From an uncultured Gammaproteobacteria bacterium (lineage in GTDB: Bacteria > Patescibacteriota > Microgenomatia > Daviesbacterales > UBA10151): a stretch of DNA of 64,000 bases. The notes beneath the pieces were generated by a model. That model was not told the DNA's origin, made no database searches, and saw only the letters and a list, made by a program, of their open reading frames with translations. Positions 4,683 to 60,023 of the stretch are shown here, in pieces. Each line of letters opens with the position of its first letter. Position 1 is the stretch's first letter. Both the position numbers and the translations under genes were made by a program. The DNA is taken from the NCBI GenBank assembly GCA_964396715.1, contig CAYNFQ010000002.1, positions 2,234-66,233 on the forward strand, given 5' to 3'.

Positions 4683-5917
4683 CTTAACAGACTAACAAGC
4701 AGCATCAGCAAAATCAAGTACTCGGATACCACAGTGGTAGTGGCTGCTGCCATAAACGAATAAGCAGGGATGTAGATAAAATTTAAGACTAAGTTGATCG
4801 CCAAACCGAACGCGTAAATTATCAGCAATGTCTTATATCTACCCTTGCCAATTAAAATCCACATCAAAAGCGAGGACAAAAAATAGGCCGGGAAACCTGC
4901 GGATAATATTTGCAGGCTTTGAGAAGAACCGATAAATCCTCCTCCTGTCAAAAGATTTATCACGGTTGGCGCCAGCATGAGTGTTAGCGCCATACCCAAA
5001 CCAGCCAGCAACAATAAACCCAGTCCAATAATCTTGCTGCCTTGGTAAGATTTCAGCATCAGCGGATAATAAGCATTCATAATAAAGGTGGGCAAAACCA
5101 GGGCTGATTGGAAAATTGAATAGGCAATATTATATATTCCGGCATCAGATACACCTTTAAAATAGGCCACCATAAATGAATCTGCCCGAAAATAGATCAC
5201 ATTTAACCCTAAAGTTGCGGCAATGGGCCAACTGCTTGTGATAAGTTTTTTGGAAAAGGTCGCATCAAAAATAGGTGTCATTGTTTGAGTAATTTTCCTG
5301 GAAAATATTACAGCCAAAAAAACTACCAGTATCCAGTTTAAAACCTGGGCAAAGATTAAATACAAAAGGGGGAAGTTGGCATTAACAAACCAGATCACCA
5401 GCAATAAATTTAACACAGTGCCTGCTGATGTTGCCGCAACAGACAAATCATATCTTAATTTGGACTGAAACAACAAGTTAATGCTGACAAAAATGGCAGA
5501 TCCAAAAATGATCGGGCTGCCAAAGATAACCAGTTTTCTGAATACATCACCCCCGATAGGCAGAAGGGGGAGCACGATTATGGAAAGTGCCATTAGTATT
5601 GCTGCCCATACAATTCTTGTTCCTAAAAGTTTCCTAAACATCTGCTTCTGCAGACTGAAGACTGAAGACTGAAGACTTTTTAAAACATGCGCATTAAAAC
5701 CAAAATCGGAAAGCAGCATAAACATGGACAGGTAAGTCAGGGCCAGAGTAAAAATACCTGTTCCTTCCTCACCAAACTTTCTGGTGATAAGACCCAAGAT
5801 GATGATGGTGGAGAAAACAGACACGGCTTTGCCTGCAATCTGCCACATTGTTTGCTGGGAAATTTTTAAAATTTGACTCACGCTTTTAATTCTAACATGG
5901 AAAGGCTCAGTCCCCAA
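4679..5917 (-). CDS. polysaccharide biosynthesis flippase (MOP/Wzx-like), 12-14 TM
   Basis: Polytopic membrane protein with Wzx-like topology. The start is probably the internal Met near 5848, because the N-terminus overlaps the upstream gene. Contains an in-frame GACTGAA x3 tandem repeat at 5652-5676. Confidence 0.55.
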   Translation of the reverse strand: MGTEPFHVRIKSVSQILKISQQTMWQIAGKAVSVFSTIIILGLITRKFGEEGTGIFTLALTYLSMFMLLSDFGFNAHVLKSLQSSVFSLQKQMFRKLLGTRIVWAAILMALSIIVLPLLPIGGDVFRKLVIFGSPIIFGSAIFVSINLLFQSKLRYDLSVAATSAGTVLNLLLVIWFVNANFPLLYLIFAQVLNWILVVFLAVIFSRKITQTMTPIFDATFSKKLITSSWPIAATLGLNVIYFRADSFMVAYFKGVSDAGIYNIAYSIFQSALVLPTFIMNAYYPLMLKSYQGSKIIGLGLLLLAGLGMALTLMLAPTVINLLTGGGFIGSSQSLQILSAGFPAYFLSSLLMWILIGKGRYKTLLIIYAFGLAINLVLNFIYIPAYSFMAAATTTVVSEYLILLMLLVSLLR

Positions 5918-11775: not shown

Positions 11776-11816
11776 ATTTCAGTCTTCAGCTATCAGCTTT
11801 CAGACTTTAAAATTGT

Positions 11817-11844
11817 CTGACGACTGACGACTGACGACTGACGA
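11817..11844. repeat. heptamer tandem repeat (CTGACGA)x4 abutting the dnaN start codon
   Basis: Direct reading. Confidence 0.85.
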
Positions 11845-11850
11845 CTGAAA

Positions 11851-19195: not shown

Positions 19196-20214
19196 CCTAC
19201 TGCCTCCTTTGCTGTGATTGTCAAAGGTGAGATCACCTGTCCTGTTAGTTCAATTTGCAAGACATCAAAACCGAAAGTATCTTTTTCCAATTCAATTTTA
19301 TAGGTGCCGTTTGGCAAAGGCGTTGCCCCTGAGAATTGGCCCAATTTGTTAGTTTTTAAGGCTCGGACAGGCAACCCTTCTTTATCGTAAATAACCACCA
19401 CCACGCCTTCCAGGGAGTTTCCGCGGGCATCCTTGATAATGCCGTTAATCACATTGGGAAAAGAAGTCAGGGCAATTTGGGTCGCTTTGCTTTTTTGTGG
19501 GGTGATAACTTTTACCTCAGGTTTGGCCATAGGCACAGGTATGGTTTGAGATTTTAGCTCCTCCTCGCCGACAGTTTCCAGTTGTTGTTTAATCTGCGAT
19601 GCCTGGTTGACCAAATTTTGCAAATCAGCCAAAACCTGGTTGACCTGCCCACTGTAATCAACAGGGATAGGTTTTGGTTTTTGCGCTTCTTCCCTGATAT
19701 GACTTAAGGTCCGTTCGGTTTGGATGATCTTCCATTGCAAATTTTGTGCCTCTTTTGCCAAATCAACAGTTTTTTTCAGATCATCCGCAGTAGGTATGGG
19801 TTCTGGCGGTATGACAGCCTGGCTGGGGACGGTGGTGGCTTCAGCCGGAGCTGGGGGATAAAGACCGGAAACATAGGTGACAAAGCGAGAACCAAACAGC
19901 GGGTCATTAACAGCAGTTTTGTTGTTTTTCTGCCAGACTCTTTTGGTGGGAGAATAAACAGCTTTTAAAAATGCCCCCAGCCAATAATCCAGAGGTCTTG
20001 AATTTATAGGCAAAAAAGCAAACGCAAAGCCCAAAGAGGCGGAAATTACAATCAGCGGCCAGGCAATTAAGGGATAGGCAGAGGAGACAAACACAAACAA
20101 AACATAGGCAATAGTTGAACCTGCTGCCAGATACATAAATTGTTTTAAGGTCATATCCCCGATCAGATGAAACTCAAAAGTGGTCACATTTTGCGGAATA
20201 GGATGCGGTTCCAT
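19192..20214 (-). CDS. VirB3/PrgI-like membrane protein fused to C-terminal carboxypeptidase-regulatory-like beta-sandwich domain
   Basis: N-terminal two-TM PrgI-like segment (FEFHLIGDMTLKQFMYLAAGSTIAYVLF). C-terminal GVVVVIYDKEGLPV...GTYKIELEKDTFGF CarbopepD_reg-like domain. ATGA overlap with the downstream VirB4-N ORF. Confidence 0.5.
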   Translation of the reverse strand: MEPHPIPQNVTTFEFHLIGDMTLKQFMYLAAGSTIAYVLFVFVSSAYPLIAWPLIVISASLGFAFAFLPINSRPLDYWLGAFLKAVYSPTKRVWQKNNKTAVNDPLFGSRFVTYVSGLYPPAPAEATTVPSQAVIPPEPIPTADDLKKTVDLAKEAQNLQWKIIQTERTLSHIREEAQKPKPIPVDYSGQVNQVLADLQNLVNQASQIKQQLETVGEEELKSQTIPVPMAKPEVKVITPQKSKATQIALTSFPNVINGIIKDARGNSLEGVVVVIYDKEGLPVRALKTNKLGQFSGATPLPNGTYKIELEKDTFGFDVLQIELTGQVISPLTITAKEAVG

Positions 20215-20270
20215 TAGGTAGGGTATAGCGTATAGAGAATAGGGTATAGTTGAATCTTCATAACTATAAG

Positions 20271-20660
20271 CTAAACGCTACTGACTAAACGCTTACTAAT
20301 ACCTCCTTTCTCTCTGTATACCATGACGCATAACATCTTGATGACTTCTAATAGTAATTCCTCCGATTTGCTAAAGCTCTCAGTTGGCGCTAACTGGAGT
20401 TCTTTAGAAATAACAAGCTGAGTATCCAATTCTAAAGCAGATCCGTAAGCAATAGCGTAAAATTGTAAGTATTCTTTATGTGATCGTCTAGCATAACCCT
20501 CTGCTATATTAGAAGGAATAGAAATTACTGCTCTGTGAATCTGTGAAATAATAACAAATTGCTCATTTCTGGGAAACAACGATGTTAATTTATATACCTC
20601 TTTGACTAATTGTATAGATTTTTGCCAGACAATTAATTCTTTATATGATTGTATTTTCAT
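20271..20660 (-). CDS. four-helix-bundle protein of the 23S rRNA intervening-sequence family (TIGR02436-like), copy 1
   Basis: WQKS...IAEGYAR...EYLQFYAIAYGSALELDTQL motif pattern; flanked by CTATACGCTAAACGC-type inverted repeats. Confidence 0.75.
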   Translation of the reverse strand: MKIQSYKELIVWQKSIQLVKEVYKLTSLFPRNEQFVIISQIHRAVISIPSNIAEGYARRSHKEYLQFYAIAYGSALELDTQLVISKELQLAPTESFSKSEELLLEVIKMLCVMVYREKGGISKRLVSSV

Positions 20661-20865
20661 AACTATACGCTAAACGCTACTCTCTATACGCTTCGTTATA
20701 CAATGTGAAAAAAATAATGGCAAGCAGCACAAAGGGGATCATTATGGGACAAATATGGTTAAATGACAAAATCCAAATGCCAAATTACAAATGAAATCTT
20801 AATTTCAAATTTTAAATTTTAGTCATTTGATATTGGAAATTTGAAATTCTTATGTTATTCTTAAT

Positions 20866-21053
20866 TTGTGGTGCACTAGTCCGATGTCATATCGGACCAA
20901 GGTGCAAAAAGGGAATCCGGTTAAAATCCGGAGCTGTGCCGCAACTGTGATTAGTTAGAGAATAGTAAATAGCGTACAGCGTTTAGTTATAAACAACTAT
21001 ACGCTAAACGCTTCTCTCTATACCCTAACTTTAAGTCAGGAGACCGACCACAA
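20866..21053 (+). ncRNA. cobalamin (B12) riboswitch
   Basis: Core AAGGGAATCCGGTTAAAATCCGGAGCTGTGCCGCAACTGTGA. B12-box-like AGTCAGGAGACCGACC. P1 candidates TTGTGGT/ACCACAA. Lies in the 5' leader of 21078..21986. Confidence 0.6.
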
Positions 21054-21077
21054 TTTAGATCCCGTAGCAGGAAAAAT

Positions 21078-24362: not shown

Positions 24363-24482
24363 ATATAGCTATCAGTCATCAGACGTCAGTCGTCAGACAA
24401 AAAATCTGAAAGCTGAAGACTGAAAGCTGAAAGCTAATTTAAGGCCATGGAATTTTCCAGACGGAAATGGTAAAATTGTTTC

Positions 24483-25039: not shown

Positions 25040-25130
25040 TGTAAGGAATAAATCAAGCAGTTTGACTCCGCTCAATGTAAACTTATCCCGGACTTGCAAA
25101 GATGTTTGGGAAATTCTATGCTGAAGTTAG
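25040..25130 (+). repeat. dispersed promoter-bearing repeat, copy D (short variant)
   Basis: Same conserved ends; TTGCAA-17-TATGCT promoter pointing into the 1391-aa ORF. Confidence 0.65.
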
Positions 25131-25272
25131 GGACTAGGGATTAGCAACTAGGGTTTAGTAAAAACAAACTATACCCTAAACCCTACACCCTATACCCAAA
25201 AAAAGGCCATGGAATTTTCCCAAGTATAATTGTAGAAAGTTATAACCTTGAGCGAAGCCGAAAGGGAAAAAT

Positions 25273-29448: not shown

Positions 29449-31252
29449 TTAATCCTGGTCTTCTTGGCCACGAAAAACCACCTTTCCATCCAACGAAATT
29501 GCCCGCTTTATCAAGTACTTGAGTATGTTGAGGGTTCCAAATAGGTCCTGATGTTTCTCCAAAAAGCGCTTTATTCCATCCGCCTAATTGTCCGCCTACG
29601 GCGCCTCGTCCTTGAGCAAAATATCCCTGACCGCTTCTGATACCTCCGGAAATTTCCTGACCAAGCAACTGTCCTGCCTGGCCCATTTTCCCAATAGCGC
29701 TAACAACGATATCCGGAATTTTAGGTAATGCCACCAATGCCCCGAAAGCCAAAAGAATTTTAATAAACTCCAAATCCATGCCACCCAAAAGAGGAAAGGT
29801 TGTGTTGCCTACAATTTGTATTGGTTCCGCAGCCAAAGCAACAGGCATAAAATTGTTGCCTGCAGGACTTACTGCATCAGTAACAACTTTAAGCGGTCCA
29901 AAATCCTTCCCCAAAATAAATGCTATAAAATAAAAGACAGCCAAGACTGCGGGAAAGATTAAAATATTACCCAGCATATTTAATACCCAGTTAGTGGCAA
30001 TTCCTTGTCTGCCGGGCAGGGAAGCAGCCAGAAATTGAAAGGGAGCGCTGATTGTTAGGAAAATAATGGTCAGATAAGCGGTGATTAAACGCAGGAGCAG
30101 TTTGAGCATAGCGTATATTAGCGCAATCATAGCAATGAAACTTAATATAAATCCTAACCAAAATTGAGTAGTGGCAGCTACGATACCTCCGGCTACTGCG
30201 GTTATTAGCGGACCCAGCCACAGCCCCAAAGGGGGAGGAATAGCCGATGTTAAGGGACTGACAAATTGAGCGGCGATAAAGCCTGTAAAAAGCCTTAGCC
30301 ATCCCTGGACCTCTCCGCTTAGTTTATCAAATATAGCTATCACTGCATTTTCTGCTTTTTCTTGGGTAACTATGCTCACAAATTCACTAAAAATACTTAA
30401 AACACTATCGCCTGATATTTGCTGTACCAAGTTTGTTCTTTGCGGGTCATCTAATTTTCCTTGAGCTGCTGCAAAATAATAGCCGACTGCGTTAGTACCA
30501 ATAAAAGCAGTATCAGAAATAAATCCTGCCAAAAAGTAGGAAAAAGTAATTAAAATTAAACCAATAACTAACCCAGGTAGTGCTGCCTGGGCTGTGATGA
30601 CTGTCTGTGGGTTAATCCTTTGCCGAAACATCACCATCAGCCCGATTATGACAAAAATTATTATCATCACCAGATAAGAAATATTTCTGGAAACCTGCCA
30701 GAGGGATAAAATTGGACTTAAGACACTGGCCCCTGATCCACCTACTTGAGCCCGGGCCTCTTTTACAACTCCCAGGCCTTCTCCCAAAGATGCCAGGTAA
30801 TCTGCTGTTCTGATAGGAGGGTTTGCATAAAGTCCTGCTATAAGGCCTGTGGTGGTCCCTAAAAGCCCTCCTGAAAGATTAGCTGAGGAAAGCACCGGAA
30901 TGGACTGAATTGCTCCCTGGGCATTCTGGGTCAGCTGATAAGTTAGACAGGGTTGGCCGATTACTGATGAACCAATAGAAAGACAGGAAAAGGTATGGAA
31001 TATGTTATGCACCAGAAGGTCTGTGTATAAAGGGGAGGTGGGGGGGATGGTAGGTGGTAGTGAGTAGGTTGTAGGTTGTAGGGAAGAAGGAGAAGGAGTA
31101 GAAGTTTGGGCAAAAACAGGAGTGGTGAATAATGTCAAAATCAAAATGACAAATAACAAATGAATGACAAAGCCAAAATGACAAATAACAAATTTTTTGA
31201 AATTTAGATTTGATTTGACATTTGACATTTGAGCTTTGAGTTTTCCAACCAT
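29441..31252 (-). CDS. VirB6/TrbL-like polytopic membrane protein (putative T4SS channel component) with Gly-rich C-terminus
   Basis: Signal peptide followed by at least six TM helices and large loops; location next to the pilin and VirB4 loci. The first approximately 20 codons are encoded by AAATGTCAAAT-type repeats, so the real start may be internal. Confidence 0.4.
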   Translation of the reverse strand: MVGKLKAQMSNVKSNLNFKKFVICHFGFVIHLLFVILILTLFTTPVFAQTSTPSPSSLQPTTYSLPPTIPPTSPLYTDLLVHNIFHTFSCLSIGSSVIGQPCLTYQLTQNAQGAIQSIPVLSSANLSGGLLGTTTGLIAGLYANPPIRTADYLASLGEGLGVVKEARAQVGGSGASVLSPILSLWQVSRNISYLVMIIIFVIIGLMVMFRQRINPQTVITAQAALPGLVIGLILITFSYFLAGFISDTAFIGTNAVGYYFAAAQGKLDDPQRTNLVQQISGDSVLSIFSEFVSIVTQEKAENAVIAIFDKLSGEVQGWLRLFTGFIAAQFVSPLTSAIPPPLGLWLGPLITAVAGGIVAATTQFWLGFILSFIAMIALIYAMLKLLLRLITAYLTIIFLTISAPFQFLAASLPGRQGIATNWVLNMLGNILIFPAVLAVFYFIAFILGKDFGPLKVVTDAVSPAGNNFMPVALAAEPIQIVGNTTFPLLGGMDLEFIKILLAFGALVALPKIPDIVVSAIGKMGQAGQLLGQEISGGIRSGQGYFAQGRGAVGGQLGGWNKALFGETSGPIWNPQHTQVLDKAGNFVGWKGGFSWPRRPGLIK

Positions 31253-35115: not shown

Positions 35116-35546
35116 CCGATTATTTTTAAATCACTAATATTAAGTAGTCTTGCCAATAAAAACTGTAATATTAAAAATGCAAACATCAGTATTATAAACC
35201 CTACTATAGCATGGGTGATCATCTGTCTTGCCGAATCCATATCTTCTTTATTCCCTCCGGCCTTTAAAAACCTGAATGCTCCCAGCAGGAAATAAAGTAT
35301 TACCAAAAATGCGGCTACTTGAAATAAAGGCTTGACTAGCCTGGAGGTTCCACAACCTAAAGAGGTTATATCTCCAAAACCAAATTTAGAACCAATATCA
35401 ACCCCCTTTGCAGTTGTAGAGGCTGTATTTACCTCACTCTTGCATGGATCTTGTTCTTGGTCCGCGGCAAAGACAGGAGTAACAAGCAGTAGATAACTTG
35501 TAAGCAAAACTGTAAACTGTAAACTGTAAACTGTAACCTTTCTCAA
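35112..35546 (-). CDS. VirB2/TrbC-like T4SS pilin paralog 4
   Basis: Same signature (GAFRFLKAGGNKEDMDSARQMITHAIVGFIILMFAF). Probable TTG start at 35546 after a GGAGG RBS. The ORF track's ATG at 35639 would overlap the upstream gene by 97 bp. The signal peptide contains an (AAACTGT)x4 tandem repeat. Confidence 0.45.
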   Translation of the reverse strand: MRKVTVYSLQFTVLLTSYLLLVTPVFAADQEQDPCKSEVNTASTTAKGVDIGSKFGFGDITSLGCGTSRLVKPLFQVAAFLVILYFLLGAFRFLKAGGNKEDMDSARQMITHAIVGFIILMFAFLILQFLLARLLNISDLKIIG

Positions 35547-35875
35547 AATGGCGAGCCTCCTTTTGGTGGTAATATTTGAGCAGCAAAGGTGGCAATCAGG
35601 TAGGCTGTCAGTATCACCATCAGTCCGATTATGGCCCATTTAATTCTTTCTCTGGCTTTGGCCAGCTCTTCTTTTTTGCCTGAGGCTAAAATGTACTGGA
35701 ACGCCCCCCAAAGCAGCCAGTAAAAAGCCATAAAGATGGCAATATAAAAAGCAATATTTAAAAGACCGGATAAAACATCAGCCAGTTTAGCATTTTCGAA
35801 TTTAAAATTAAGGGCTTTTAAGCCGGAATCTTTTAGTAAATCGTTTAACATAAGTTTAGTAATGCCAAAGCTCAA
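35543..35875 (-). CDS. VirB2/TrbC-like T4SS pilin paralog 5
   Basis: WGAFQYILASGKKEELAKARERIKWAIIGLMVILTAYLI. Confidence 0.55.
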   Translation of the reverse strand: MSFGITKLMLNDLLKDSGLKALNFKFENAKLADVLSGLLNIAFYIAIFMAFYWLLWGAFQYILASGKKEELAKARERIKWAIIGLMVILTAYLIATFAAQILPPKGGSPF

Positions 35876-35977
35876 AGTCCAAATGTCAAATGAATTTCAA
35901 AGCCTAAATGACAAATTTTTTGTCTTTGGCATTTAGATTTGATTTGTCATTTGTAATTTGGATTTTGACATTTTACT

Positions 35978-36376
35978 TTACTTTCTGATAATTGCCGAAA
36001 AAATTAAAGTCAATTCCTGAGCTTCTTGCCAATGCTTCCTTGCTTCCGGTGCAAGGTTTGGTACAGCTTTTGCCACCATCCTGAGCCAATGTTTGGTTTC
36101 CTTGGCTTCTTTTTTACAAATGCCTATTTTATGTTTGAAGTCTTTTTTGCTTTCCGCCCCGTCTGCTTCGCAATAGTTAGCTCCTATACTGGTGCCTGAT
36201 CGGACTAGTTGGCTGATAACAGGCAGTGTTACGGGATTTTGCGGTATTTTTTTAGCAAACTCCAGAGTCTTTTCCCCAAACTTGGCAGTCCTTTCCTCAA
36301 GATCATATTTCTTTTTAGTATTTGGATTTTGACCTTCATTTGTAATTTGAAATTTGTAATTTGACATTGTCATCAT
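35978..36376 (-). CDS. four-helix-bundle protein of the 23S rRNA intervening-sequence family, copy 2, embedded in the pilin operon
   Basis: GTSIGANYCEADGAESKKDFKHKIGICKKEAKETKHWL motif. ATGA overlap with the upstream pilin-adhesin gene. N-terminus is encoded by AAATGTCAAAT repeats. Confidence 0.7.
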   Translation of the reverse strand: MMTMSNYKFQITNEGQNPNTKKKYDLEERTAKFGEKTLEFAKKIPQNPVTLPVISQLVRSGTSIGANYCEADGAESKKDFKHKIGICKKEAKETKHWLRMVAKAVPNLAPEARKHWQEAQELTLIFSAIIRK

Positions 36377-37952: not shown

Positions 37953-39659
37953 ATGCCCCGTTTTCTTGCTGTATTTTTACTTGTTACTTTTGCCTTGTTA
38001 CTTGTTACTTTTCCTGTCCATGCTGATGAAATAGAGGATTTACAAAAGCAAATAAATTCTCTGAATGAGGAATATCAAAGAGTAGAGAAAGCCAAAGCTC
38101 CTTTGGAAGGACAGCTGGATTCCTTAAAAAGGCAGCTGGCCCAAATTCAAGCCACCTTAGACAATTTATCAGCCAATATAACAATAAAACAGCAGGAGCT
38201 GGATTTAAGAGAAGATAAATTGGCTTTCCAGCAGGCCCTTTTGGAGGAAAGAGTCAGGGCATATTATATCCGCTCATACCTGACAGATCCCCTTTTGGTG
38301 ATTCTTTCCTCCTTTAAGGCCGGTGATTTATTCCGCGAGCTATCCTACAGACAAACCGTGACCAGGGAAGACAAACAGGTGATCACCTCCATTACCAACC
38401 AGGTCTTAGATCTTTTAACTGAAAAAGAAAAACTGGAAAAAGATAAAGCCAGGCTCGCTCTTTTACAAGCTGATGTTGATAAAAATGCCAAGTTTTTGGG
38501 AGGGGAAATCACCAAGGCAAAGGTGTATCAGCAAGAATTATCCACAAAAATTGCTCAACTGACTGCCCGCCAGCAGGCAATCATTGCCCAAAGGCAGGCT
38601 GCTTTGGGTCTGCCTACCTCATTAGGTGCAGGTCCACTTTTCTGCACTGATGATAGAAAACTTGACCCGGGCTTTAGACCGGCCTTTGCCTTTTTCACTT
38701 ACGGTATTCCTCACAGAGTGGGTATGAACCAATACGGAGCATACGGCAGATCCCAGGCAGGCCAAAATCATGAAGATATCTTAAGAGCCTACTTTCAGGA
38801 TTTTTCTTTTGAGCAAAGACCTAACATCAATATTTCTGTTTCCGGCTACGGTTCAATGCCTTTGGAAACATATCTTTTGGGGATCTATGAAATGCCGGAC
38901 TCCTGGCCGGCTGAATCCCTCAAAGCTCAAGCTATTGCTGCCCGCTCTTATGCCTTATCCTATACCAACAACGGTTCCAAGGAAATTTGTACCACTCAAC
39001 AGTGTCAGGTTTACAAGGGTGGCAATAAAGGAGGCAATTGGGAACAGGCAGTAAAAGCAACTGAAGGCAAAACTATGATCTCAGGTGGCTCGCCTGTTAC
39101 TGCCTGGTATTCTTCAACAGACGGCGGGTACACATACACAGCCTCGGATATTGGCTGGGGAGGACGCTCTTTTACCAAAAGGTTAAGGGATACAAGCGGG
39201 GATATAGGTAGTTTTGGGGATCTTTCTTCCAAAGCTTATGACCGTGATTCCCCTTGTTTTTATGCGGCCCAGGGCTTTAGGCCTGAGTATGCAAAGTCTG
39301 CCTGGCTAAAATCAGAAGAGGTAGCGGATATTGCCAATGTGGTAATGCTTGTCAAAAGAGATAGCGGGGTTTCTGCGCATATTTACCAGACAGATAAACC
39401 TAATCCCGAGGGAGGGGAAACATGGAATGCGGATAGGGTCAAGGAGGAGTTAAGAAATAAAGGGGGCACTCCCTTTAACAGCGTATCAGGGGTATCTGTG
39501 GGGGTGGATTTCGGATCCGGCATGGTCACATCTGTCACAGTTTCAGGGGACAGGGGCTCTGAAACATTTAACGGGTCAGAATTTAAAAACTTCTTTAATC
39601 TTCGTGCCCCTGCCAATATCCAAATAGTAGGACCGCTCTTCAACGTTGAGACAAAATAA
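37953..39659 (+). CDS. SpoIID/LytB-domain peptidoglycan-remodelling protein with N-terminal coiled-coil
   Basis: Signal peptide, coiled-coil (approximately 35-200), then the SpoIID/LytB motif region YLLGIYEMPDSWPAESLKAQAIAARSYAL...QQCQVYKG. Confidence 0.65.
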   Translation: MPRFLAVFLLVTFALLLVTFPVHADEIEDLQKQINSLNEEYQRVEKAKAPLEGQLDSLKRQLAQIQATLDNLSANITIKQQELDLREDKLAFQQALLEERVRAYYIRSYLTDPLLVILSSFKAGDLFRELSYRQTVTREDKQVITSITNQVLDLLTEKEKLEKDKARLALLQADVDKNAKFLGGEITKAKVYQQELSTKIAQLTARQQAIIAQRQAALGLPTSLGAGPLFCTDDRKLDPGFRPAFAFFTYGIPHRVGMNQYGAYGRSQAGQNHEDILRAYFQDFSFEQRPNINISVSGYGSMPLETYLLGIYEMPDSWPAESLKAQAIAARSYALSYTNNGSKEICTTQQCQVYKGGNKGGNWEQAVKATEGKTMISGGSPVTAWYSSTDGGYTYTASDIGWGGRSFTKRLRDTSGDIGSFGDLSSKAYDRDSPCFYAAQGFRPEYAKSAWLKSEEVADIANVVMLVKRDSGVSAHIYQTDKPNPEGGETWNADRVKEELRNKGGTPFNSVSGVSVGVDFGSGMVTSVTVSGDRGSETFNGSEFKNFFNLRAPANIQIVGPLFNVETK

Positions 39660-39724
39660 ATTTCAAATATCAAATGTCAAATGAAATCTAAATGCCAAAT
39701 TTTTAAAATATTTGGATTTTAACA

Positions 39725-40333
39725 TTGATTTGTCATTTGGATTTTGTCATTTGGATTTTTATGGAGTATACTCCAATCATCATGTTCTCATCCTATGTTG
39801 AAAATCCCTCAAACTGCCGTTTTGAGGGCCAGGACACTGATGAAAAGATTCTTTTGCTTTTAAGGGCCCACCCCATCACCAATTTAAGATGGATAATGCC
39901 TGCGATTTTACTTTTCTTTGCCCCATTTTTTATACAGGAAATTTTTTTACTTCTGAATTTAGATTTATCAAAAGTACCGGAAACTTTTGCCATAGTTTTT
40001 TTAATCATTAACTATCTTCTGGTTTTAACTATTGTATTTGAAGGATTTTTATACTGGTACTTTAATGTCTACATTGTCACTGATAAAAATATTGTGGATG
40101 TGGATTTTCACTCCATTCTATTTAAAAATATTGATGTGGCCCCCTTAAGAAACATTGAGGATACCTCATCATCAATGGGTGGAATTTTGCATGCCGTCTT
40201 TCACTATGGTGATGTTTTTATTCAAACAGCCGGAGCATCCAGAAATATTGATTTCATATCTGTGCCAAGACCGCACCATGTGGCTGATTTTATCTTGGAT
40301 GAAGCACACAAAATTTATGGAAGGGGGACGTGA
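39725..40333 (+). CDS. hypothetical membrane protein (bPH/YdbS-like?)
   Basis: Two or three TM helices followed by a soluble domain; start may be the Met at 39758. Confidence 0.35.
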   Translation: MICHLDFVIWIFMEYTPIIMFSSYVENPSNCRFEGQDTDEKILLLLRAHPITNLRWIMPAILLFFAPFFIQEIFLLLNLDLSKVPETFAIVFLIINYLLVLTIVFEGFLYWYFNVYIVTDKNIVDVDFHSILFKNIDVAPLRNIEDTSSSMGGILHAVFHYGDVFIQTAGASRNIDFISVPRPHHVADFILDEAHKIYGRGT

Positions 40334-40569: not shown

Positions 40570-42374
40570 ACTTAAAGATAGCTCAAGTTATTGGGCTCAA
40601 CACTGACCAGAAAGCTGCCCAGGTGCTTTCTTCGCAACAGGAAGAAAAGGGCACTTTTTTGGCAGTTTGCGAACTGGTCTGTGATGATGCTTTTACCCGC
40701 GGCAGGCAGATTCTGTCCGATCTTTTGGATTTCTATTTTGAATTTGAAGGTTCAATACCGGAAAAACTGAATGCTGCTTTCAAGGAGGCTGAAGCGAAAC
40801 TTTTAGAAATTGACGGTGTTAATTTGGTGCTTTCGGCAATTTCAGGTAAAGCTTTATACTTAATAGCCCGCGGGCAGGTTGAGGTTTACCTGAAAAGAGA
40901 GGACAAACTCTCGTCACTGTTGTCTGTCGGAAGGCAGGCTCAGTTAATCTCGGGTTTTCTCAAGGAAGGCGACAGGCTGCTTTTTGCCACAAAAAACCTA
41001 ATCACTTTTTTAGGTGCGGATTTAGCCAAATCTTTGGATCTGCCGATAGAAACGTTTGAGGAAGAGATTTCGGATAGGGTGGGGGCTTCTGATTTGGAGA
41101 ATCAGGGACTGGCAGCTCTGGCTTTGGAGGTTGAAGCGGATCAAGAGGCGGCCATTGAAAATTTGGAAGAGAAGGAAACTGCCGGTATTCAGAAATCTTC
41201 TAAAATTTCAATAGTTAAAAATATCGGCTTCAATCTTGTCGGTTTTATCTTAAAATCCGGAAAATATTTCCCCAAAGGGGGCAGGGAAAGGCTGATTTTG
41301 GCGGTAGTTTTGATCATGATATTAGTGGCTGGTTTGGGCTTTAAATATATCAGTTCCAAAAATGAGCAAAAACAGGCTCAATTTCAAAAAATTTTACAAG
41401 AGGCACAAGATGATTTTAATGGGGCCAAGGGTTTAACCACACTTTCTCCTGCCGAGGCCAAAGCAAGATTGGATGCTGCCAAAGAAAAAATTAACAAAGC
41501 GCTCAATCTGGATGCCAAGAACAAAAATGCCCTGGATTTAAAACAGCAAATAGAAGAACAGTCAAGCTCAATTTTACAGCAGGTTTCCGTTGCCCAGTTC
41601 CCGGAATTTTTAGATATGGATTTGGTTAAAAAAAACTTCAGGGCTAAGAGTTTGAGTTTGTCGGCAGGCAAACTGCTGCTTTTAGATCCTGCGGTTAAAA
41701 CCTTAGGTTTAGTGGATACTGCCAAAAAAAGCAACCAGATTCTGGCAGGAGAAAGCCAGCTTGGGGATGGGCTTTTTGCTTCTTTGAATGGTGAAATGGC
41801 CTTTGTCTACTCCCAGGATAAGGGTTTACTCAGGATTGATTCTACCAATCAAAAAGTGACAACTGTTTCCCAAAATGATGAAGGCTGGGGGGATATCTTG
41901 GATATGTATGGTTTTGCCGGCAATATTTACTTGTTAGACTCTCTCAAAAACCAAATATGGAAATACTTGCCAACTGCTGAGGGATATTCGGATAAGAGAG
42001 AATACTTGACGAAAGATACGAAGGTAGATTTGGCAAATGCCCTCAGAATGCAGATTGAATCTTCTGTCTATATTTTGAAGCAAGGTGGAGAAATTTTAAG
42101 ATTTACCAGGGGGGCAAAAGACAACTTTGGTTTAGAGGGTTTACCTTCAGGAGTAAAAGACCCAAAAAGTTTCTTTGTTTCATCAGACACAGATAATTTA
42201 TATGTCTTGGATTCGGGTAATTCCAGGCTGCTGATCTTGACCAAAATTGGAGCTTACAAAGGGCAGATGGCAGGAGAAAAATTTGGTTCAGCTTCTGATT
42301 TGGTGGTGGATGAGAAGGGGAAGAAAGTGTATCTTTTAGAAGGAAGCAAGATATTTCAAGTGGACTTGAAATAG
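40566..42374 (+). CDS. hypothetical membrane-anchored protein with C-terminal beta-propeller-like region
   Basis: 602 aa, central TM LILAVVLIMILVAGLGF, repetitive beta-strand-rich C-terminus. Confidence 0.4.
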   Translation: MNLKIAQVIGLNTDQKAAQVLSSQQEEKGTFLAVCELVCDDAFTRGRQILSDLLDFYFEFEGSIPEKLNAAFKEAEAKLLEIDGVNLVLSAISGKALYLIARGQVEVYLKREDKLSSLLSVGRQAQLISGFLKEGDRLLFATKNLITFLGADLAKSLDLPIETFEEEISDRVGASDLENQGLAALALEVEADQEAAIENLEEKETAGIQKSSKISIVKNIGFNLVGFILKSGKYFPKGGRERLILAVVLIMILVAGLGFKYISSKNEQKQAQFQKILQEAQDDFNGAKGLTTLSPAEAKARLDAAKEKINKALNLDAKNKNALDLKQQIEEQSSSILQQVSVAQFPEFLDMDLVKKNFRAKSLSLSAGKLLLLDPAVKTLGLVDTAKKSNQILAGESQLGDGLFASLNGEMAFVYSQDKGLLRIDSTNQKVTTVSQNDEGWGDILDMYGFAGNIYLLDSLKNQIWKYLPTAEGYSDKREYLTKDTKVDLANALRMQIESSVYILKQGGEILRFTRGAKDNFGLEGLPSGVKDPKSFFVSSDTDNLYVLDSGNSRLLILTKIGAYKGQMAGEKFGSASDLVVDEKGKKVYLLEGSKIFQVDLK

Positions 42375-42447
42375 TGATTAGCGTTTAGGGTACAGCGTAT
42401 AGTTGAATTTGAATAACTAAACGCTATACGCTATTCTCTATACGCTT

Positions 42448-43669: not shown

Positions 43670-44107
43670 TAATGGGTGGAGATGGGCGGTTTGAACCGCC
43701 GTCCAAAATTGTGACTTTTAAAACTTCTACAAGCTTATCTTTACTATATTTTTGAGTGTTAATTTGTAACCGTAAAGAAGGAAGATTAACACTTAATCCA
43801 AATTTCTTGGTTCTGATTATGGATTAGATATCAGAAGCTGCATCCTGACTGGGTACATTACTTTAGGTTCTAGCCAGAAAAAGAATTCTAAAATAGATGC
43901 TTTAAGTTCTAGCGTATGCAACAGGAGTAAATACTCCAGTTACACCTGCAAAAAGTTTTGCAACTTCTTGCTCTGCCATTGCTTTGGCATCACGGACAAG
44001 TTTATTGCCGTTTGTTGTTTGAAACAGTATTTTACGTTTAATGTTTCCTTAACAGCTTGCAGTTTTTAAAGAGCAATCCTGTCGAGACTATACATCCCCA
44101 GGTCATT
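43670..44107 (-). ncRNA. ssrA: tmRNA (SsrA)
   Basis: 5' end GGGGAUGUAUAGUCUCGACAGGAU matches the tmRNA consensus GGGGcUGauUcuGGAUUCGACGGGAU. 3' tRNA-like end GGACGGCGGUUCAAACCGCCCAUCUCCACC(CA). Adjacent to smpB. Confidence 0.7.
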
Positions 44108-44142: not shown

Positions 44143-44841
44143 ATGAACTTTTTATTAGATATTTTATTTTCCAAAAAATGCGTAGGCTGTAAAAAAGAGG
44201 GTAGCTATTTTTGTCAGGGTTGTGTCTTAAATATTTTGCAAACAGATTTGGTTTGTCCAAGATGCGAAAAATTGGCAGTCGGAGGCCAGACCCACCCTAT
44301 TTGCCAAAGAAAATATGGTTTAGACGGGCTTTGGAGTTTAGGGATTTATAAGGATCCTCTGCGATCCGCCATCCAGCAGCTTAAATATAAAGGGGTTAAA
44401 GAGCTGGCAGAAATTCTGGTCAATATAACCTTGGAGTATTGGGCAAAATACCAGCCTTTTATTTTAGACCAAATAAAAAGGGACAGAGGAAAAGGCTGGG
44501 TGGTGATACCTGTTCCTTTGCATTGGTGGAGAGCTAACAGCAGGGGATTTAACCAGGCATCTCTTATAGGACAAATTTTATCCAAAAAATTAGGTTTGGA
44601 CTATTGTGATGGGTTAAAACGTATTCGTTACACCAGGTCTCAGGTAAAACTAAAAGGCAAACAGAGAAAGAAAAATATTTCTGGTGCTTTTGGGGTGACT
44701 TCTAACTATACCCTATACCCTAAACCCTACACCCTACTCATTGACGATGTCTGGACTACTGGTTCAACTTTAAAAGAATGCTGCTATGTTTTAAAAAGAA
44801 ACGGTGCCAAAAAGGTTTGGGCCCTAACTTTGGCTAGATAG
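44143..44841 (+). CDS. comFC: competence protein ComFC (double zinc ribbon + phosphoribosyltransferase)
   Basis: N-terminal CxxC x4; C-terminal LLIDDVWTTGSTL PRTase motif; contains an in-frame dispersed-repeat insertion. Confidence 0.8.
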   Translation: MNFLLDILFSKKCVGCKKEGSYFCQGCVLNILQTDLVCPRCEKLAVGGQTHPICQRKYGLDGLWSLGIYKDPLRSAIQQLKYKGVKELAEILVNITLEYWAKYQPFILDQIKRDRGKGWVVIPVPLHWWRANSRGFNQASLIGQILSKKLGLDYCDGLKRIRYTRSQVKLKGKQRKKNISGAFGVTSNYTLYPKPYTLLIDDVWTTGSTLKECCYVLKRNGAKKVWALTLAR

Positions 44842-54823: not shown

Positions 54824-55451
54824 CCAATTTGTATCTCGTGGTGGGGAGAAGCTTCAGGCAGCAATTGAAAATTGGAAGCTAAATTTGGAAAATTTGACTT
54901 GTTTGGATGTGGGTTCCTCTACTGGCGGATTTGTGGATTGCCTTTTGCAAAATGGGGCCAAAAAAGTTTATGCCCTGGATACTGCATATGGGGAATTAGC
55001 CTGGAAACTTCGCAATGATGAAAGAGTGGTAGTAATGGAGCGAGTCAATATCCTGCATCTTGAAAGCCTTCCTTCTTCCGTCATGGCGAGGAGTATAGCG
55101 ACGAAGCAATCTAGAAAAGAGATTACCACGCTTCCTGTGGTCGCTCGCAATGACAATGTGAGAGTGGACTTAATTACTATAGATGCTGGCTGGACAAAAT
55201 TAGAGTTGGTTTTACCTGTTGTAAAAAAGTTTTTAAAGCCAGGTGGCACAATTATTGCATTAGTTAAACCGCACTATGAAGCTGATAAGAAGTTGCTGGT
55301 AAAAGGGGTTTTGACTCCAGAAATTGCAGAACAAGTTAAAAATGAGGTTTTGAAATGGTTACAGGTTTTAGGTTTTAGGTTACAGGGTGAAATGGAATCT
55401 CCGATTTTAGGTGGGGGAGGGAATAAGGAATATTTACTTCTAATTAGCTAG
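54813..55451 (+). CDS. TlyA-like FtsJ-family rRNA 2'-O-methyltransferase (no S4 domain) with about 25-aa insertion
   Basis: FVSRGGEKL...LDVGSSTGGFVDCLLQNGAKKVYALDTAYGEL matches TlyA. A palindromic DNA segment at about 55066-55165 adds an extra peptide between conserved blocks. Confidence 0.65.
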   Translation: MASDQFVSRGGEKLQAAIENWKLNLENLTCLDVGSSTGGFVDCLLQNGAKKVYALDTAYGELAWKLRNDERVVVMERVNILHLESLPSSVMARSIATKQSRKEITTLPVVARNDNVRVDLITIDAGWTKLELVLPVVKKFLKPGGTIIALVKPHYEADKKLLVKGVLTPEIAEQVKNEVLKWLQVLGFRLQGEMESPILGGGGNKEYLLLIS

Positions 55452-56314: not shown

Positions 56315-58090
56315 ATGGATGACAAAGATTTAATCAAAGAGAAAATTAATATTGTAGATCTGATCTCCGAGTATTTAACCTTAAAAAAATCAGGTATTAA
56401 CTTTAAGGCTAATTGCCCATTCCATAACGAGAAGACCCCGTCATTTGTAGTTTCACCGGAACGTCAAATCTGGCATTGTTTTGGATGTTCCAAGGGCGGC
56501 GACATTTATACCTTTTTAATGGAAAAAGAGGGGATGGAGTTTAAAGAAGCATTAGAGATTTTAGCAAAGAAAGCAGGAATTACCTTAACAAGAATTGAGG
56601 GCAAAAAAGATTTTCGGGATAGGCTATTTGAGATTAACCTGAAAGCCCAGGAATTTTTTCACTACATTTTAACCAAACACCCTTTAGGTAAAAGAGCCTT
56701 AAAATATTTGCAAGATAGGGGAGTGTCAGATTCTGCTGTTGAAGAATTCTGTCTAGGTTATGCCCCCAATTCCTGGGAGTCTTTGACAAAATTTTTACTC
56801 AAAAGACACTTTACCTTGAAGGAGATTATCGATTCTGGTTTAGGGGTGCCTGCAAAATCAGGCTGTTATGACAGATTCAGAGGCAGGATAACATACCCTT
56901 TAATTGATGGAAAAGAAAAATTAAGGGGTTTTTCCGGCAGGGTTTTGACCCACCAAGAGCCAAAATATATCAATACTCCCCAAACCCCCATTTTCGACAA
57001 AGGCAGTTTCCTTTTTGGCATGAATTTGGCAAGAGGAGAAATCAGGAATAAAAAGGAAGCTGTTTTGGTGGAGGGTGAGATGGATGTAATTTTATCCCAT
57101 CAGGCGGGCTTTAAAAACGTGGTTGCCTCAAAAGGTACTGCTCTAACAGAGGGTCAAATAGAACTGATTAAAAAATACACTCCAACTATCACCTTGGGAT
57201 TTGATATGGATTTGGCAGGAGATAGTGCCTGCCGGAGGGGTATTGAGATGGCAGATAAAGCAGGGTTGGATATAAAAGTTATTCAACTGATGGGCGGAAA
57301 AGATGCGGCTGATGCGGTACTGGAGGATGTGCAGGTTTGGCAAAAAGCCATAGAGGGGGCTGTACCGATTTATGATTATTATCTGGTATCCGTATCCAAA
57401 AGATTGGACAGCAAAAATCCGCAAGATCTGAAAAAAATCGGAGAAGAACTGATACCTGTTTGGGCAAAAATTACCAATGATTTGGTTCGTGAGCACTATA
57501 TTCAAAAGTTATCGGCATTTTTAAAAACCGATGAAAAAATAATCAGGGAAAATATTGATCAGACAAGAAAGGCGGGAATAAGCACTTTTACTCAGGTATT
57601 AAAACAGCATCCTGCTCAGGATAATGTGGTAGCTGTCAAAAACAGACGGGAGCTTTTGGAAGATTATCTAATAGCCCTCCTGCTTCATCCGCCTGCCGGA
57701 CTTAACTTTGTACCTAACTTTCCTGAAACGCTCTTTTTAAGAGAATACTTCAGACAGATTTATGTGCTGCTGTTTTTATATTTGGACTCAATATCGTTCA
57801 AAAGCCAGTCTTTTAATATTAATGAGTTTATTAAGGAATTGCCGAAAGAGTTACTTTCAGAAGTTGACAGGTTGTATTTAACGGAAATTGACAGTAAACT
57901 TCTCGATGGTAAACTTTGGCAGCAAGAGATAGAAAGTGTGGTTTCCGAACTTAAGAAAGCTTTAATCAAAGCTTCTTTGGAAAAACTCTCTTTGGAGATT
58001 AAAAATGCCCAGGAGTTTGGTAAGATGGAAGTGGTGGAGTCTTTGAACAAAAGATTTAGGGATTTATCAGTGAAGCTCAAGAATTTATAA
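56315..58090 (+). CDS. dnaG: DNA primase
   Basis: Zinc finger CPFHNEKTPSF...WHCFGC; TOPRIM domain. Confidence 0.9.
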   Translation: MDDKDLIKEKINIVDLISEYLTLKKSGINFKANCPFHNEKTPSFVVSPERQIWHCFGCSKGGDIYTFLMEKEGMEFKEALEILAKKAGITLTRIEGKKDFRDRLFEINLKAQEFFHYILTKHPLGKRALKYLQDRGVSDSAVEEFCLGYAPNSWESLTKFLLKRHFTLKEIIDSGLGVPAKSGCYDRFRGRITYPLIDGKEKLRGFSGRVLTHQEPKYINTPQTPIFDKGSFLFGMNLARGEIRNKKEAVLVEGEMDVILSHQAGFKNVVASKGTALTEGQIELIKKYTPTITLGFDMDLAGDSACRRGIEMADKAGLDIKVIQLMGGKDAADAVLEDVQVWQKAIEGAVPIYDYYLVSVSKRLDSKNPQDLKKIGEELIPVWAKITNDLVREHYIQKLSAFLKTDEKIIRENIDQTRKAGISTFTQVLKQHPAQDNVVAVKNRRELLEDYLIALLLHPPAGLNFVPNFPETLFLREYFRQIYVLLFLYLDSISFKSQSFNINEFIKELPKELLSEVDRLYLTEIDSKLLDGKLWQQEIESVVSELKKALIKASLEKLSLEIKNAQEFGKMEVVESLNKRFRDLSVKLKNL

Positions 58091-58155
58091 GGTAACAGGT
58101 AACTAGTGACAAGTAACAAGTTATAAATACTTGTGCCTGGTTACCTTTACTGTAC

Positions 58156-59262
58156 TTGTTACTAACCATTATGGCTAAACACAAGAAAGAAGTACAACTG
58201 GATGCTAAAAAATTATTAAAACTCGGTCAGGAACGGGGTTTCATTACCCAGGAGGAAATTTTGCAAATTTTCCCCAAGCCTGAAGAGGAAATTGAGAGTT
58301 TAGATGAATTCTATATTAAATTGATCAATGAAAACATTGATGTTTTTGAAACAACAGCAGAGGAGCTGGATGCCGATTCTAAAACCGCCACAGAGCTGGA
58401 GAAAGAATTGGAGCTGTTGTCCACTTTGGAAGAAGGCTCAGTGACAGATCCGGTCAGGCAATATTTGCGGGATATTGGCAAAATTCCTCTGCTAACAGCT
58501 ACTGATGAGATAGAATTGGCCAAAAAAGCGGAAAAAGGGGAGAAAAAAGCCAGAGACAGATTAACCTCTGCCAATTTGAGGCTGGTTGTCTCCATTGCCA
58601 AAAAATATGTCGGACGCGGCATGAGTCTTTTGGATTTGATTGAGGAGGGGAATATCGGGTTGATGAGGGCGGTTGATAAATACGACTGGAGAAGAGGCTA
58701 TAAATTCTCCACCTATGCCACCTGGTGGATTAGACAGGCTATCACCAGGGCCATTGCAGACCAGGCCAGGACCATCAGGATTCCGGTTCACATGGTGGAA
58801 ACCATCAACCGTTTTAATAGGACGCAAAGGAGGCTGATGCAGGAATTGGGTAGGGAACCGGCCCCTGAGGAGGTTGCCAAAGCTTTGGAAATTGACCCCA
58901 GCAAAGCCCGTGAGATTATCAAAGTTTCCCAAGAACCTACTTCTTTGGAAACGCCAGTGGGGGATGAGGAGGATTCTCATTTAGGGGATTTTATTGCTGA
59001 CCAGGGTTTACAGCCGGATGAGCAGGCCACTCGTGAGCTTTTAAAAATTCATTTAGATGAGGTGTTGGATTCGCTTTCCCCCAGGGAAAAAAGAGTGCTG
59101 CAGCTAAGATTTGGTTTGGAGGATGGGAAACAAAGGACATTGGAGGAGGTGGGGAAAGAGTTTGGGGTTACCAGGGAAAGAATCAGACAAATTGAGGCCA
59201 AAGCCATCAGGAAATTAAAGCACCCCACCAGGGCCAAAAAACTGCGGGACTACTTAGAATAA
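58156..59262 (+). CDS. rpoD: RNA polymerase sigma-70 factor RpoD
   Basis: Region 2.4 [25 protein letters not shown]; region 4.2 HTH. Confidence 0.9.
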
Positions 59263-59282
59263 TGTAAAATGTACAATGTAGA

Positions 59283-59648
59283 ATGTACAAAGAAGCTCCA
59301 ATTTATCACATCCGAGAGCGAAGCCTAAAATTCAGTATTCGAATAGTTCAACTAGTACGAACTTTCCCAAAAGACACTTCAGGATTCGCTATTGGCAATC
59401 AAATTATCAGGTCTGGAACAAGCGTGGGTGCAAATATAGAAGAGGCTCAAAACTGTGGATCTAAAAAGGAATTTATCCATACCATGACGATTGCTTTAAA
59501 AGAAGCTAGGGAAACAGAATATTGGCTTAAAATTACAAATGAGGTAAAATTAACCGATAAAGATTTGGTAAGTAACTTACTTTTAGAAGTAAACGAACTT
59601 ATCAAAATCTTAACTTCGATTATTAAGAAGTCAAAACTTAATAGTTGA
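59283..59648 (+). CDS. four-helix-bundle protein of the 23S rRNA intervening-sequence family, copy 3
   Basis: GTSVGANIEEAQNCGSKKEFIHTMTIALKEARETEYWL; flanked by inverted GTACAATGT/TGTACAAAG-type repeats. Confidence 0.75.
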   Translation: MYKEAPIYHIRERSLKFSIRIVQLVRTFPKDTSGFAIGNQIIRSGTSVGANIEEAQNCGSKKEFIHTMTIALKEARETEYWLKITNEVKLTDKDLVSNLLLEVNELIKILTSIIKKSKLNS

Positions 59649-59733
59649 TCGCACCTTAAATTTTATTTCTTTGTACAGTTTATATATTGTATTTTTATAC
59701 ATTTTACATTGTAAATTGTACATTGACCTATAT

Positions 59734-59997
59734 TCCCCTGTAGCTCAACGGTAGAGCGGGATCCTGTAAAATATTGCAGCTTCTTCGAAAAATCGGAGTT
59801 GAAAAATTGGGTTAATTGTCGGGAAACCTTTAAAATGGTAATCCGCAGCCAAGGTCCGATGTAATATCGGACAAGGTTCAGAGACTATACGCCTGAAGCC
59901 TAAAGCGAAAGCAATGGTTATGAGATAGTCCAAGTCCTGATGAAAATCGGGAGCACTTGTAAGATCAAGGTTCGTGGTTCGAATCCACGCGGGGGAG
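59734..59997 (+). tRNA. tRNA-Asn(GUU) interrupted by a 192-nt group-I-like intron (exons 59734-59767 and 59960-59997)
   Basis: Exons assemble to TCCCCTG-TA-GCTC-AACGGTA-GAGC-G-GGATC-CTGT^TAA-GATCA-AGGTT-CGTGG-TTCGAAT-CCACG-CGGGGGA-G, closely resembling E. coli tRNA-Asn. 5' exon ends in U and the intron ends in G. Confidence 0.6.
59768..59959 (+). ncRNA. group-I-like intron in the tRNA-Asn anticodon loop
   Basis: AAUCCGCAGCCAAG...AAGGUUCAGAGACUAUAC ... GAUAGUCC P7 pairing. Candidate P1 between exon CUGU and intron GCAG. Confidence 0.55.
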
Positions 59998-60023
59998 CTG
60001 AGTGGCACTTAATATACCCAAAA

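Follow-up and report, generated by a model that had tools for sequence, protein, structure and literature searches.

A four-helix-bundle gene between inverted heptamer arrays in a type IV secretion leader, a probable member of a widespread class of operon cassettes

Why should a gene of a protein family named after the intervening sequences (IVSs) of 23S rRNA lie in the leader of a type IV secretion system (T4SS) operon? We addressed this question in a 64,000-nt stretch of DNA (the window, to which all positions below refer) from contig CAYNFQ010000002.1 of assembly GCA_964396715.1, an uncultured bacterium placed by GTDB in Patescibacteriota (Microgenomatia, Daviesbacterales, UBA10151). The window contained three genes for four-helix-bundle (4HB) proteins of this family (PF05635 and TIGR02436), which is very large and for which we know of no function outside the Avd proteins of diversity-generating retroelements (DGRs). 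The first of them, copy 1, is probably a promoter-less cassette which is bounded by inverted arrays of 7-nt units, was inserted in sense in the 5' leader of the prgI/T4SS operon and belongs to a widespread class; the open reading frame (ORF)-bearing IVSs of 23S rRNA would then be a special case that landed in rRNA. The three genes were as follows.

20271–20660, minus strand: 4HB gene copy 1, 129 aa (ORF call, Pfam and TIGR02436 profiles, PDB 2GSC match)
35978–36376, minus strand: 4HB gene copy 2, 132 aa, between two T4SS pilin genes (ORF call, Pfam and TIGR02436 profiles)
59283–59648, plus strand: 4HB gene copy 3, 121 aa, between rpoD and a tRNA gene (ORF call, Pfam and TIGR02436 profiles)

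A preliminary description of the window had given exactly these coordinates and had assigned the genes to the IVS protein (IVP) family outside rRNA, all of which proved right. Copies 1, 2 and 3 scored 123.3, 53.6 and 90.6 bits with Pfam PF05635 (23S_rRNA_IVP, cut-off 33.8) and 113, 72 and 111 bits with TIGR02436 (four helix bundle protein, cut-off 24), and the closest solved relative of copy 1 by sequence match was the four-helix-bundle protein XCC0516 (PDB 2GSC, E=2.7e-21). Pairwise identity among the three was just 19–28%. A conserved motif G..R...S...N..E has been given for the IVP family (PMC3936711), and its R..S...N..E portion was kept in all three copies, with R43, S47, N51 and E54 invariant; judged from their sequences, the three ORFs seem to be intact genes and not relics. 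A search with the single sequence of copy 1 returned 19,609 cluster representatives, while a search of the window with a profile built from the three copies revealed no further 4HB gene. An Rfam scan found no rRNA gene in the window, and copy 1 lay in the prgI leader and not in helix 25 or 45 of 23S rRNA, the location that defines IVSs. Genes called within ~6 kb of copy 1 coded for PrgI, TraC-like, VirB4-like, Peptidase_M23 and AbiEii proteins, with AAA_10/TraG among their domains. At the second locus, the ATG of copy 2 overlapped the TGA of the upstream gene.

Comparison with relatives delimited the copy 1 insert.

20215–20696, minus strand: whole copy 1 insert, 482 nt (alignment to the empty-site relatives L090 and L087)

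This interval is nearly the one that had been flagged beforehand (20215–20700). In the window the site reads CACATTGTATA, the 482 nt, then ATGGAACC; in both L090 and L087 it reads CACATTGTATA-TAGATAGTA(CCC)-ATGGAACC, with both flanks conserved. L090, a groundwater relative, had a PrgI 70% identical to that of the window and the same neighbours (AbiEii, and the cobalamin riboswitch with its gene), and the PrgI of L087 was 79% identical; in L089 the upstream gene was a different one. The flank upstream of the insert was conserved and one candidate promoter site was called there. We read this flank as promoter-like, which would put copy 1 in the 5' leader of the T4SS operon; a position in the leader between this operon and the riboswitch had been proposed before. 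The contigs of L087 (positions 1–40) and L088 (1–60) ended 19–50 nt upstream of prgI, exactly at the copy 1 insertion site; repeats or a heterogeneous population could have broken the assemblies there.

The copy 2 site occurred in three states. In L172 the two pilin genes were 1 nt apart and the site was empty; in L171 they were separated by a 154-nt spacer with an ORF-less hairpin of CAAATGN units; and in the window both a hairpin and the 4HB ORF were present. Thus, at two of the three loci relatives lacked the cassette insert. In its 5' half, the L171 hairpin (positions 2600–2730) was identical to the window copy 2 hairpin (35858–35982) at ~30 of 32 nt and the flanking pilins were just 54% identical, so the hairpin may be younger than its host genes, or more constrained. 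For copy 3, none of 80 rpoD relatives had a 4HB gene within 1.5 kb on either side; synteny downstream of rpoD was not conserved and no precise junction could be drawn. The idea that arms derive from the target sequence was also considered, as the empty-site TAGATAGTA resembles TAGAGAGTA of the copy 1 arm, but it gained no support, the empty site of L172 having no CAAATG-like sequence.

All three genes were bracketed by inverted repeats composed of tandem 7-nt units: GTATAGN in copy 1, CAAATGN in copy 2 and AATGTAN in copy 3. The parts are listed below; folds are of the sense transcript, as minimum free energy (MFE) and centroid structures.

20661–20699, minus strand: copy 1 5' arm (U1), coding strand GCGTATAG AGAGTAG CGTTTAG CGTATAG, with TAG every 7 nt (repeat search; pairs with 20216–20252 in MFE and centroid)
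20257–20300, minus strand: copy 1 U2, a direct copy of the 5' arm, forming a local hairpin with the 3' arm (direct repeat)
20216–20252, minus strand: copy 1 3' arm (U'), ending 1 nt before the prgI start codon (20214) (sequence, repeat search, fold)
36320–36368, minus strand: copy 2 5' arm, CAAATGN units, translated as the ORF N-terminus (inverted and direct repeats)
35858–35982, minus strand: copy 2 arm copy and 3' arm, a hairpin with 58-nt arms (inverted repeat, fold; orthologous ORF-less hairpin in L171)
59257–59291, plus strand: copy 3 5' arm, AATGTAN units, containing the ATG of the ORF (repeat search, fold)
59694–59735, plus strand: copy 3 3' arm (inverted repeat; ~30-bp stem in MFE and centroid, z = -3.3)

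The inverted repeat of copy 1 (20213–20251 against 20661–20699) spanned 39 nt at 72% complementarity, with a 23-nt core at 87%; that of copy 2 (35861–35909 against 36320–36368) spanned 49 nt at 73%, and that of copy 3 (59261–59291 against 59694–59724) 31 nt at 87%. Copies 1 and 2 shared one layout, in which a 5' arm is followed by the ORF, a direct copy of the 5' arm and a 3' arm, so that the 3' arm has two possible partners, one local and one on the far side of the ORF. In copy 1 the direct repeat that includes U2 was 58 nt long and 81% identical to 20644–20701, the final ~10 codons and the stop of the ORF fell within U2, and the local U2:U' hairpin stopped 1 nt short of the prgI start codon. 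For copies 1 and 3, MFE and centroid structures alike contained a long-range stem of the two arms around the ORF, and the whole-cassette fold of copy 3 had a z-score of -3.3. No intrinsic terminator was called at the cassette and no T-run followed the hairpins. The period of 7 was particular: it was found in 0.16% of scan windows along the stretch, against at most 0.045% for each other period from 3 to 12, and the motif CTATACGCTAAACGC occurred 15 times at up to 3 mismatches where 0.64 occurrences were expected.

Besides the two hairpins that adjoin copies 1 and 2, we detected at least eight heptamer hairpins with no ORF dispersed in the window (no strand assigned except where given).

11780–11850: ORF-less heptamer hairpin, GACTGAN units, filling an operon spacer (period-7 scan)
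20767–20850: ORF-less hairpin, CAAATGN (copy 2) family (inverted repeats, motif search)
20950–21035, plus strand: heptamer hairpin, copy 1 family, in a riboswitch (comparison with the L090 riboswitch)
24367–24437: ORF-less heptamer hairpin, CTGAAAG units (period-7 scan)
25127–25200: ORF-less hairpin, copy-1-like, CTAnACC units (motif search)
31140–31246: ORF-less hairpin, CAAATGN family (motif search)
39655–39760: ORF-less hairpin, CAAATGN family (motif search)
42370–42446: ORF-less hairpin, copy 1 family, filling the spacer between two plus-strand genes (motif search; loop match)
58090–58150: ORF-less heptamer hairpin directly upstream of rpoD (period-7 scan)
20245–20268, minus strand: loop of the hairpin adjoining copy 1, holding ATGAAGATTCAAC (coding strand), a remnant of a 4HB start (MKIQ) (sequence, direct repeat)

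Most of these hairpins exactly filled the spacer between co-directional genes. No Rfam family covered them. The heptamer family of copy 1 recurred at 20950, 42370 and 25127 and that of copy 2 at 20767, 31140 and 39655, so the flanking repeats, which had been described as locus-specific, are not strictly so; the copy 3 family was seen at a single site in the window. Between copies the heptamer arms were degenerate (68–70% column identity). The loop at 20245–20268 was identical to the start junction of copy 1 at 20 of 24 nt, and the loop of the 42370 hairpin, 22 kb away, matched it at 19 of 22 nt. Because their loops hold remnants of a 4HB start, these two hairpins look like ORF-deleted cassettes, related to the intact ones as miniature inverted-repeat transposable elements (MITEs) are to transposons, and not like unrelated repeats. 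The preliminary description had taken such repeats, if equally frequent with no 4HB gene beside them, to count against its view. Taken literally they are, at least eight ORF-less hairpins standing against three cassettes, yet the 4HB-start remnants in two of them link the hairpins to the cassettes.

One ORF-less hairpin involved a structured RNA.

20852–21066, plus strand: cobalamin riboswitch upstream of a 302-aa gene (Rfam RF00174, 63.6 bits)

The corresponding riboswitch of L090 was 142 nt long and carried a short stem-loop, GTCCGACATAACATCGGAC, at the place where the window has the 86-nt heptamer hairpin (20950–21035). In this comparison, a hairpin of the copy 1 family replaces a short peripheral stem of the riboswitch; ORF-less derivatives dispersed in the genome can replace hairpins of structured RNAs. 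Five further heptamer arrays (5644–5683, 31055–31091, 35501–35545, 44702–44742 and 55353–55391), among them (GACTGAA)n, (AAACTGT)n and (CTAnACC)n, had no obvious partner arm. Some of them lay inside longest-ORF calls; this points to starts called wrongly or to translation of the repeats.

Is this architecture peculiar to one genome? We surveyed 80 homologous loci from a scan of one genome per species, covering the candidate phyla radiation (CPR), Bacteroidota, Acidobacteriota, Planctomycetota, Verrucomicrobiota, Firmicutes and others. On visual inspection, almost all of the 80 had inverted heptamer arrays of their own on the two sides. The best inverted-repeat score between upstream and downstream flanks had a median of 14 at 4HB loci, compared to 7.75 for control ORFs of the same loci and ~7.5 for shuffles, and 65 of the 80 loci exceeded all 20 of their shuffles (Mann-Whitney p = 1e-16). 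Period-7 matches of at least 0.8 were present in 46% of loci, whereas periods 5, 6 and 9 gave 0%. Among the 69 loci having close neighbours, both neighbours were co-directional with the 4HB gene in 57, a single cassette was antisense, and gaps of 63 and 52 nt separated the gene from its neighbours; the cassettes thus sit inside operons in sense orientation, with their arms filling most of the spacers. The arms were also asymmetric. The upstream arm contained 9% C, and TAG occurred within the heptamer in 20 of 41 upstream arrays compared to 4 of 44 downstream ones, CTA showing the reverse. With a 7-nt period, a TAG in each unit means that each of the three reading frames meets a stop.

None of 40 homologous loci tested was in an rRNA gene. 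The family had been described as normally residing in 23S rRNA IVSs and as domesticated in this genome; the rRNA result shows that both statements were wrong, and the same architecture around most of the 80 homologs across phyla likewise argues that nothing here is special to this genome. Inverted heptamer arms are a family-wide rule, operon-embedded cassettes being the rule and the rRNA IVS the exception. Some loci departed from the simple plan. L023, L072 and L080, with two 4HB matches each, carried two cassettes within ~1 kb; in L016 the heptamer array was the same on both sides, in direct and not inverted orientation.

The closest known system is the ORF-bearing IVS of 23S rRNA, as in Leptospira and in Coxiella burnetii (S23p), which resembles the window cassettes in protein family, inverted stem arms and a sense ORF; these likenesses support kinship of copy 1 with such IVSs. 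RNase III cuts the Coxiella IVS, in which 3–4 tandem GACAGAT repeats lie upstream of the S23p ORF (PMC4990558), and tandem heptamers likewise precede the ORFs here. Furthermore, an rRNA IVS stands where a host RNA hairpin would have its tip, which is also the relation of the ORF-less hairpin to the window riboswitch. The anatomy is alike, but the location in rRNA by which IVSs are defined is lacking, the host here being an mRNA leader or an operon spacer. Excision by RNase III has been demonstrated for Coxiella and is conjectural for the window cassette, and the Coxiella ORF is decaying whereas the three window ORFs keep the family motif. IVP genes have been reported from cas operons, one of the sites lying between cmr3 and cmr2 (PMC3936711), and in insertions in 16S and 23S rRNA genes of CPR bacteria (PMC11270868); neither report mentions the flanks.

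Several mobile systems share parts of this design. In the systems of repetitive extragenic palindromic (REP) sequences, their hairpin-forming pairs (REPINs) and REP-associated tyrosine transposases (RAYTs), a gene also lies between inverted copies of a palindromic repeat that is dispersed, gene-free, in other intergenic spacers, and different paralogs go with different repeat families, as here. Dispersal of the flanking inverted repeat was observed for copies 1 and 2, the copy 3 heptamer not being seen elsewhere in the window. In contrast, RAYT is an HUH/Y1 (IS200/IS605-like) transposase, whereas the window 4HB genes match only PF05635 and PF22296, and REPs are well conserved whereas the window arms are degenerate 7-nt arrays. 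ORF-less hairpins beside ORF-bearing copies recall MITEs; ORFs without a promoter, read in the direction of a host promoter and framed by imperfect palindromes, recall integron cassettes and their attC sites. Unlike in either, there is here no transposase or integrase, no target-site duplication (copy 1), and arms stand on both sides of the ORF; the duplication and conserved terminal repeats that define classical transposons and MITEs were both lacking. [quoted passage not shown] Reports of heptamer repeats (STRR, TAACTGA, G-rich) from cyanobacteria, Beggiatoaceae, Bacteroidetes and Xanthomonas saw no evident mechanism and describe direct arrays with no linked gene and no mention of the 4HB family (PMC4679880, PMC4692102). 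We found no description of the general cassette architecture in the literature searched, which left out most subscription journals, and an earlier account elsewhere is possible.

How might such a cassette work? It probably carries no promoter itself and would be transcribed by read-through from that of the host. The arms would then pair in the transcript and, by analogy with IVSs, RNase III may cut the stem, freeing the cassette RNA with less damage to the host RNA. Incoming ribosomes would be halted in all three frames by the 5' arm, rich in TAG and poor in C, and the cassette thus uncoupled from translation upstream. In copy 1, ribosomes that translate the 4HB ORF as far as U2 would be expected to open the U2:U' hairpin next to the prgI start codon.

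Several results weigh against copy 1 being an inserted cassette of this kind. No target-site duplication was present at the copy 1 junctions in the alignment with L090 and L087, and arm sequences varied from locus to locus, in contrast to classical transposons with their conserved ends. Of the proposal that a mobile or selfish module inserts into mRNAs, the insert with its empty sites for copies 1 and 2 stands, whereas conserved transposon ends and, at copy 1, a duplication are missing. The difference from relatives that lack the insert at these two loci may reflect either gain or loss. In Flavobacterium, cassettes occupied one site, as judged from shared downstream sequence, across species whose proteins were ~73% identical, suggesting that many cassettes are old and stable. 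No catalytic domain (nuclease, recombinase or polymerase) was recognised in the 4HB protein, which had Pfam matches to PF05635 and PF22296 only, and PADLOC gave no meaningful match to a defence system. Folding was also uneven: the whole-cassette z-score of copy 1 was just -1.5, the MFE structure of copy 2 contained a very stable local hairpin 3' of the ORF and not the long-range stem, and long-range pairing of copy 2 was no better than in shuffles. The flanking inverted repeats were found at all three genes as foreseen, and a stem around the ORF folds for copies 1 and 3, while for copy 2, which folds its local hairpin, such a stem is weak. Finally, arm mismatches had no G-U bias (67 G-U versus 83 C-A type), hence no RNA-specific signature, and sense and antisense arm duplexes had equal energies. 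Given these two null results, an RNA-level role of the arms is inferred only from the orientation bias and the IVS precedent, and the palindrome may instead act at the DNA level, for example as a recombination substrate.

A different explanation is that the heptamer hairpins are host cis-elements, serving operon punctuation, RNA stability or translational control, and that each 4HB protein binds its own family in trans, regulates itself and controls the ORF-less hairpins elsewhere, with nothing selfish or mobile. The three paralogs with three heptamer families (that of copy 1 recurring at 4–5 other sites and that of copy 2 at 3 other sites) would suit this, as would hairpins placed exactly between cistrons. 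Avd binds nucleic acid. Both XCC0516 and DGR Avd, to which the hidden Markov model match is weak, are oligomeric helical bundles (PMC4990558). Arm sequence also tends to be common to proteins more than 60% identical; however, similarity of arms tracked protein identity only in the range above 60%, mostly in pairs of loci that look orthologous, and there was no signal at 50–60%. Presence and absence at conserved sites and the replacement of a riboswitch stem fit insertion better than evolved regulation, the 4HB-start remnants in ORF-less loops point to descent from cassettes, and binding of heptamers by a 4HB protein is a supposition. We consider the host cis-element explanation unlikely.

Still less probable, in our view, is that the arrays are products of replication slippage, neutral or weakly structural and common in the genome, beside which 4HB genes accumulate, for instance at recombination hot spots. 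Many arrays in the window indeed had no 4HB gene and some had no partner arm, heptamer repeats are abundant in several phyla with no mechanism assigned (PMC4679880, PMC4692102), and repeat copy number differs among Coxiella strains (PMC4990558). Slippage leaves unexplained why complementary arrays flank 65 of 80 genes and not the control ORFs of the same loci, why orientation is biased 57:1 and why the arms are strand-asymmetric. Identity of the 4HB genes with Avd accessory subunits of DGRs, a related four-helix-bundle family, was rejected as highly improbable. Copies 1 and 3 did show weak matches to bAvd (PF22296, 26.7 bits) and NF033474 (22.4 and 17.4 bits), but these scores are far under the cut-offs (40 bits for PF22296 and 80 bits for NF033474), and the neighbours are pilin genes for copy 2, and rpoD and a tRNA gene for copy 3. 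No reverse transcriptase was among the genes called within ~6 kb of copy 1, the whole window not having been scanned for one nor template and variable repeats searched for.

A wider proposal can be made, which we regard as speculative and rather doubtful. The 4HB family would be the protein partner of an unrecognised pan-bacterial class of heptamer palindromes, in which cassettes are autonomous and ORF-less hairpins non-autonomous, the latter including STRR-type repeats, rRNA IVSs (ORF-bearing and perhaps some ORF-less ones) and stem insertions in riboswitches and RNase P RNA. A report by Vioque from 1997 is said, by its title, to place STRR arrays inside the gene for RNase P RNA. An Avd-like oligomer might recognise its own heptamers for spread, either at the DNA level, much as in REPIN-RAYT systems, or by way of an RNA intermediate that a reverse transcriptase would copy in trans; the second route would also explain the sense-only orientation.

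The main value of the locus is that it exposes a family-wide architecture. A single cassette design would link three puzzles, namely the ORFs in some rRNA IVSs, the stray IVP genes in unrelated operons (including cas operons) and the origin of 7-nt tandem repeats, and would make all three testable in cultivable carriers. In practice, cassettes and hairpins break into operons, leaders and riboswitches, and they seem to be places where assemblies end. Guilt-by-association labels on IVP genes, such as "CRISPR-associated", may just reflect insertion.

Additional features of the window were observed. In the segment 20852–21986 (plus strand), the riboswitch precedes the gene of a 302-aa protein with no domain match recorded and a Cys-rich C-terminus, and for a CPR genome such a protein is unusual as the cargo of a B12 riboswitch. 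A transfer-messenger RNA gene (43674–44099, minus strand) was identified by Rfam (RF00023, 100 bits) and was not reported by ARAGORN. Following copy 3, the segment 59671–60000 (plus strand) contained a tRNA gene (~59734–60000) in which a group I intron appears to lie (Rfam RF00028, 81.9 bits) and for which ARAGORN made no call. Directly after this gene, a 558-aa large serine recombinase was encoded on the minus strand (60024–61700), which may mark the edge of an element integrated at the tRNA.

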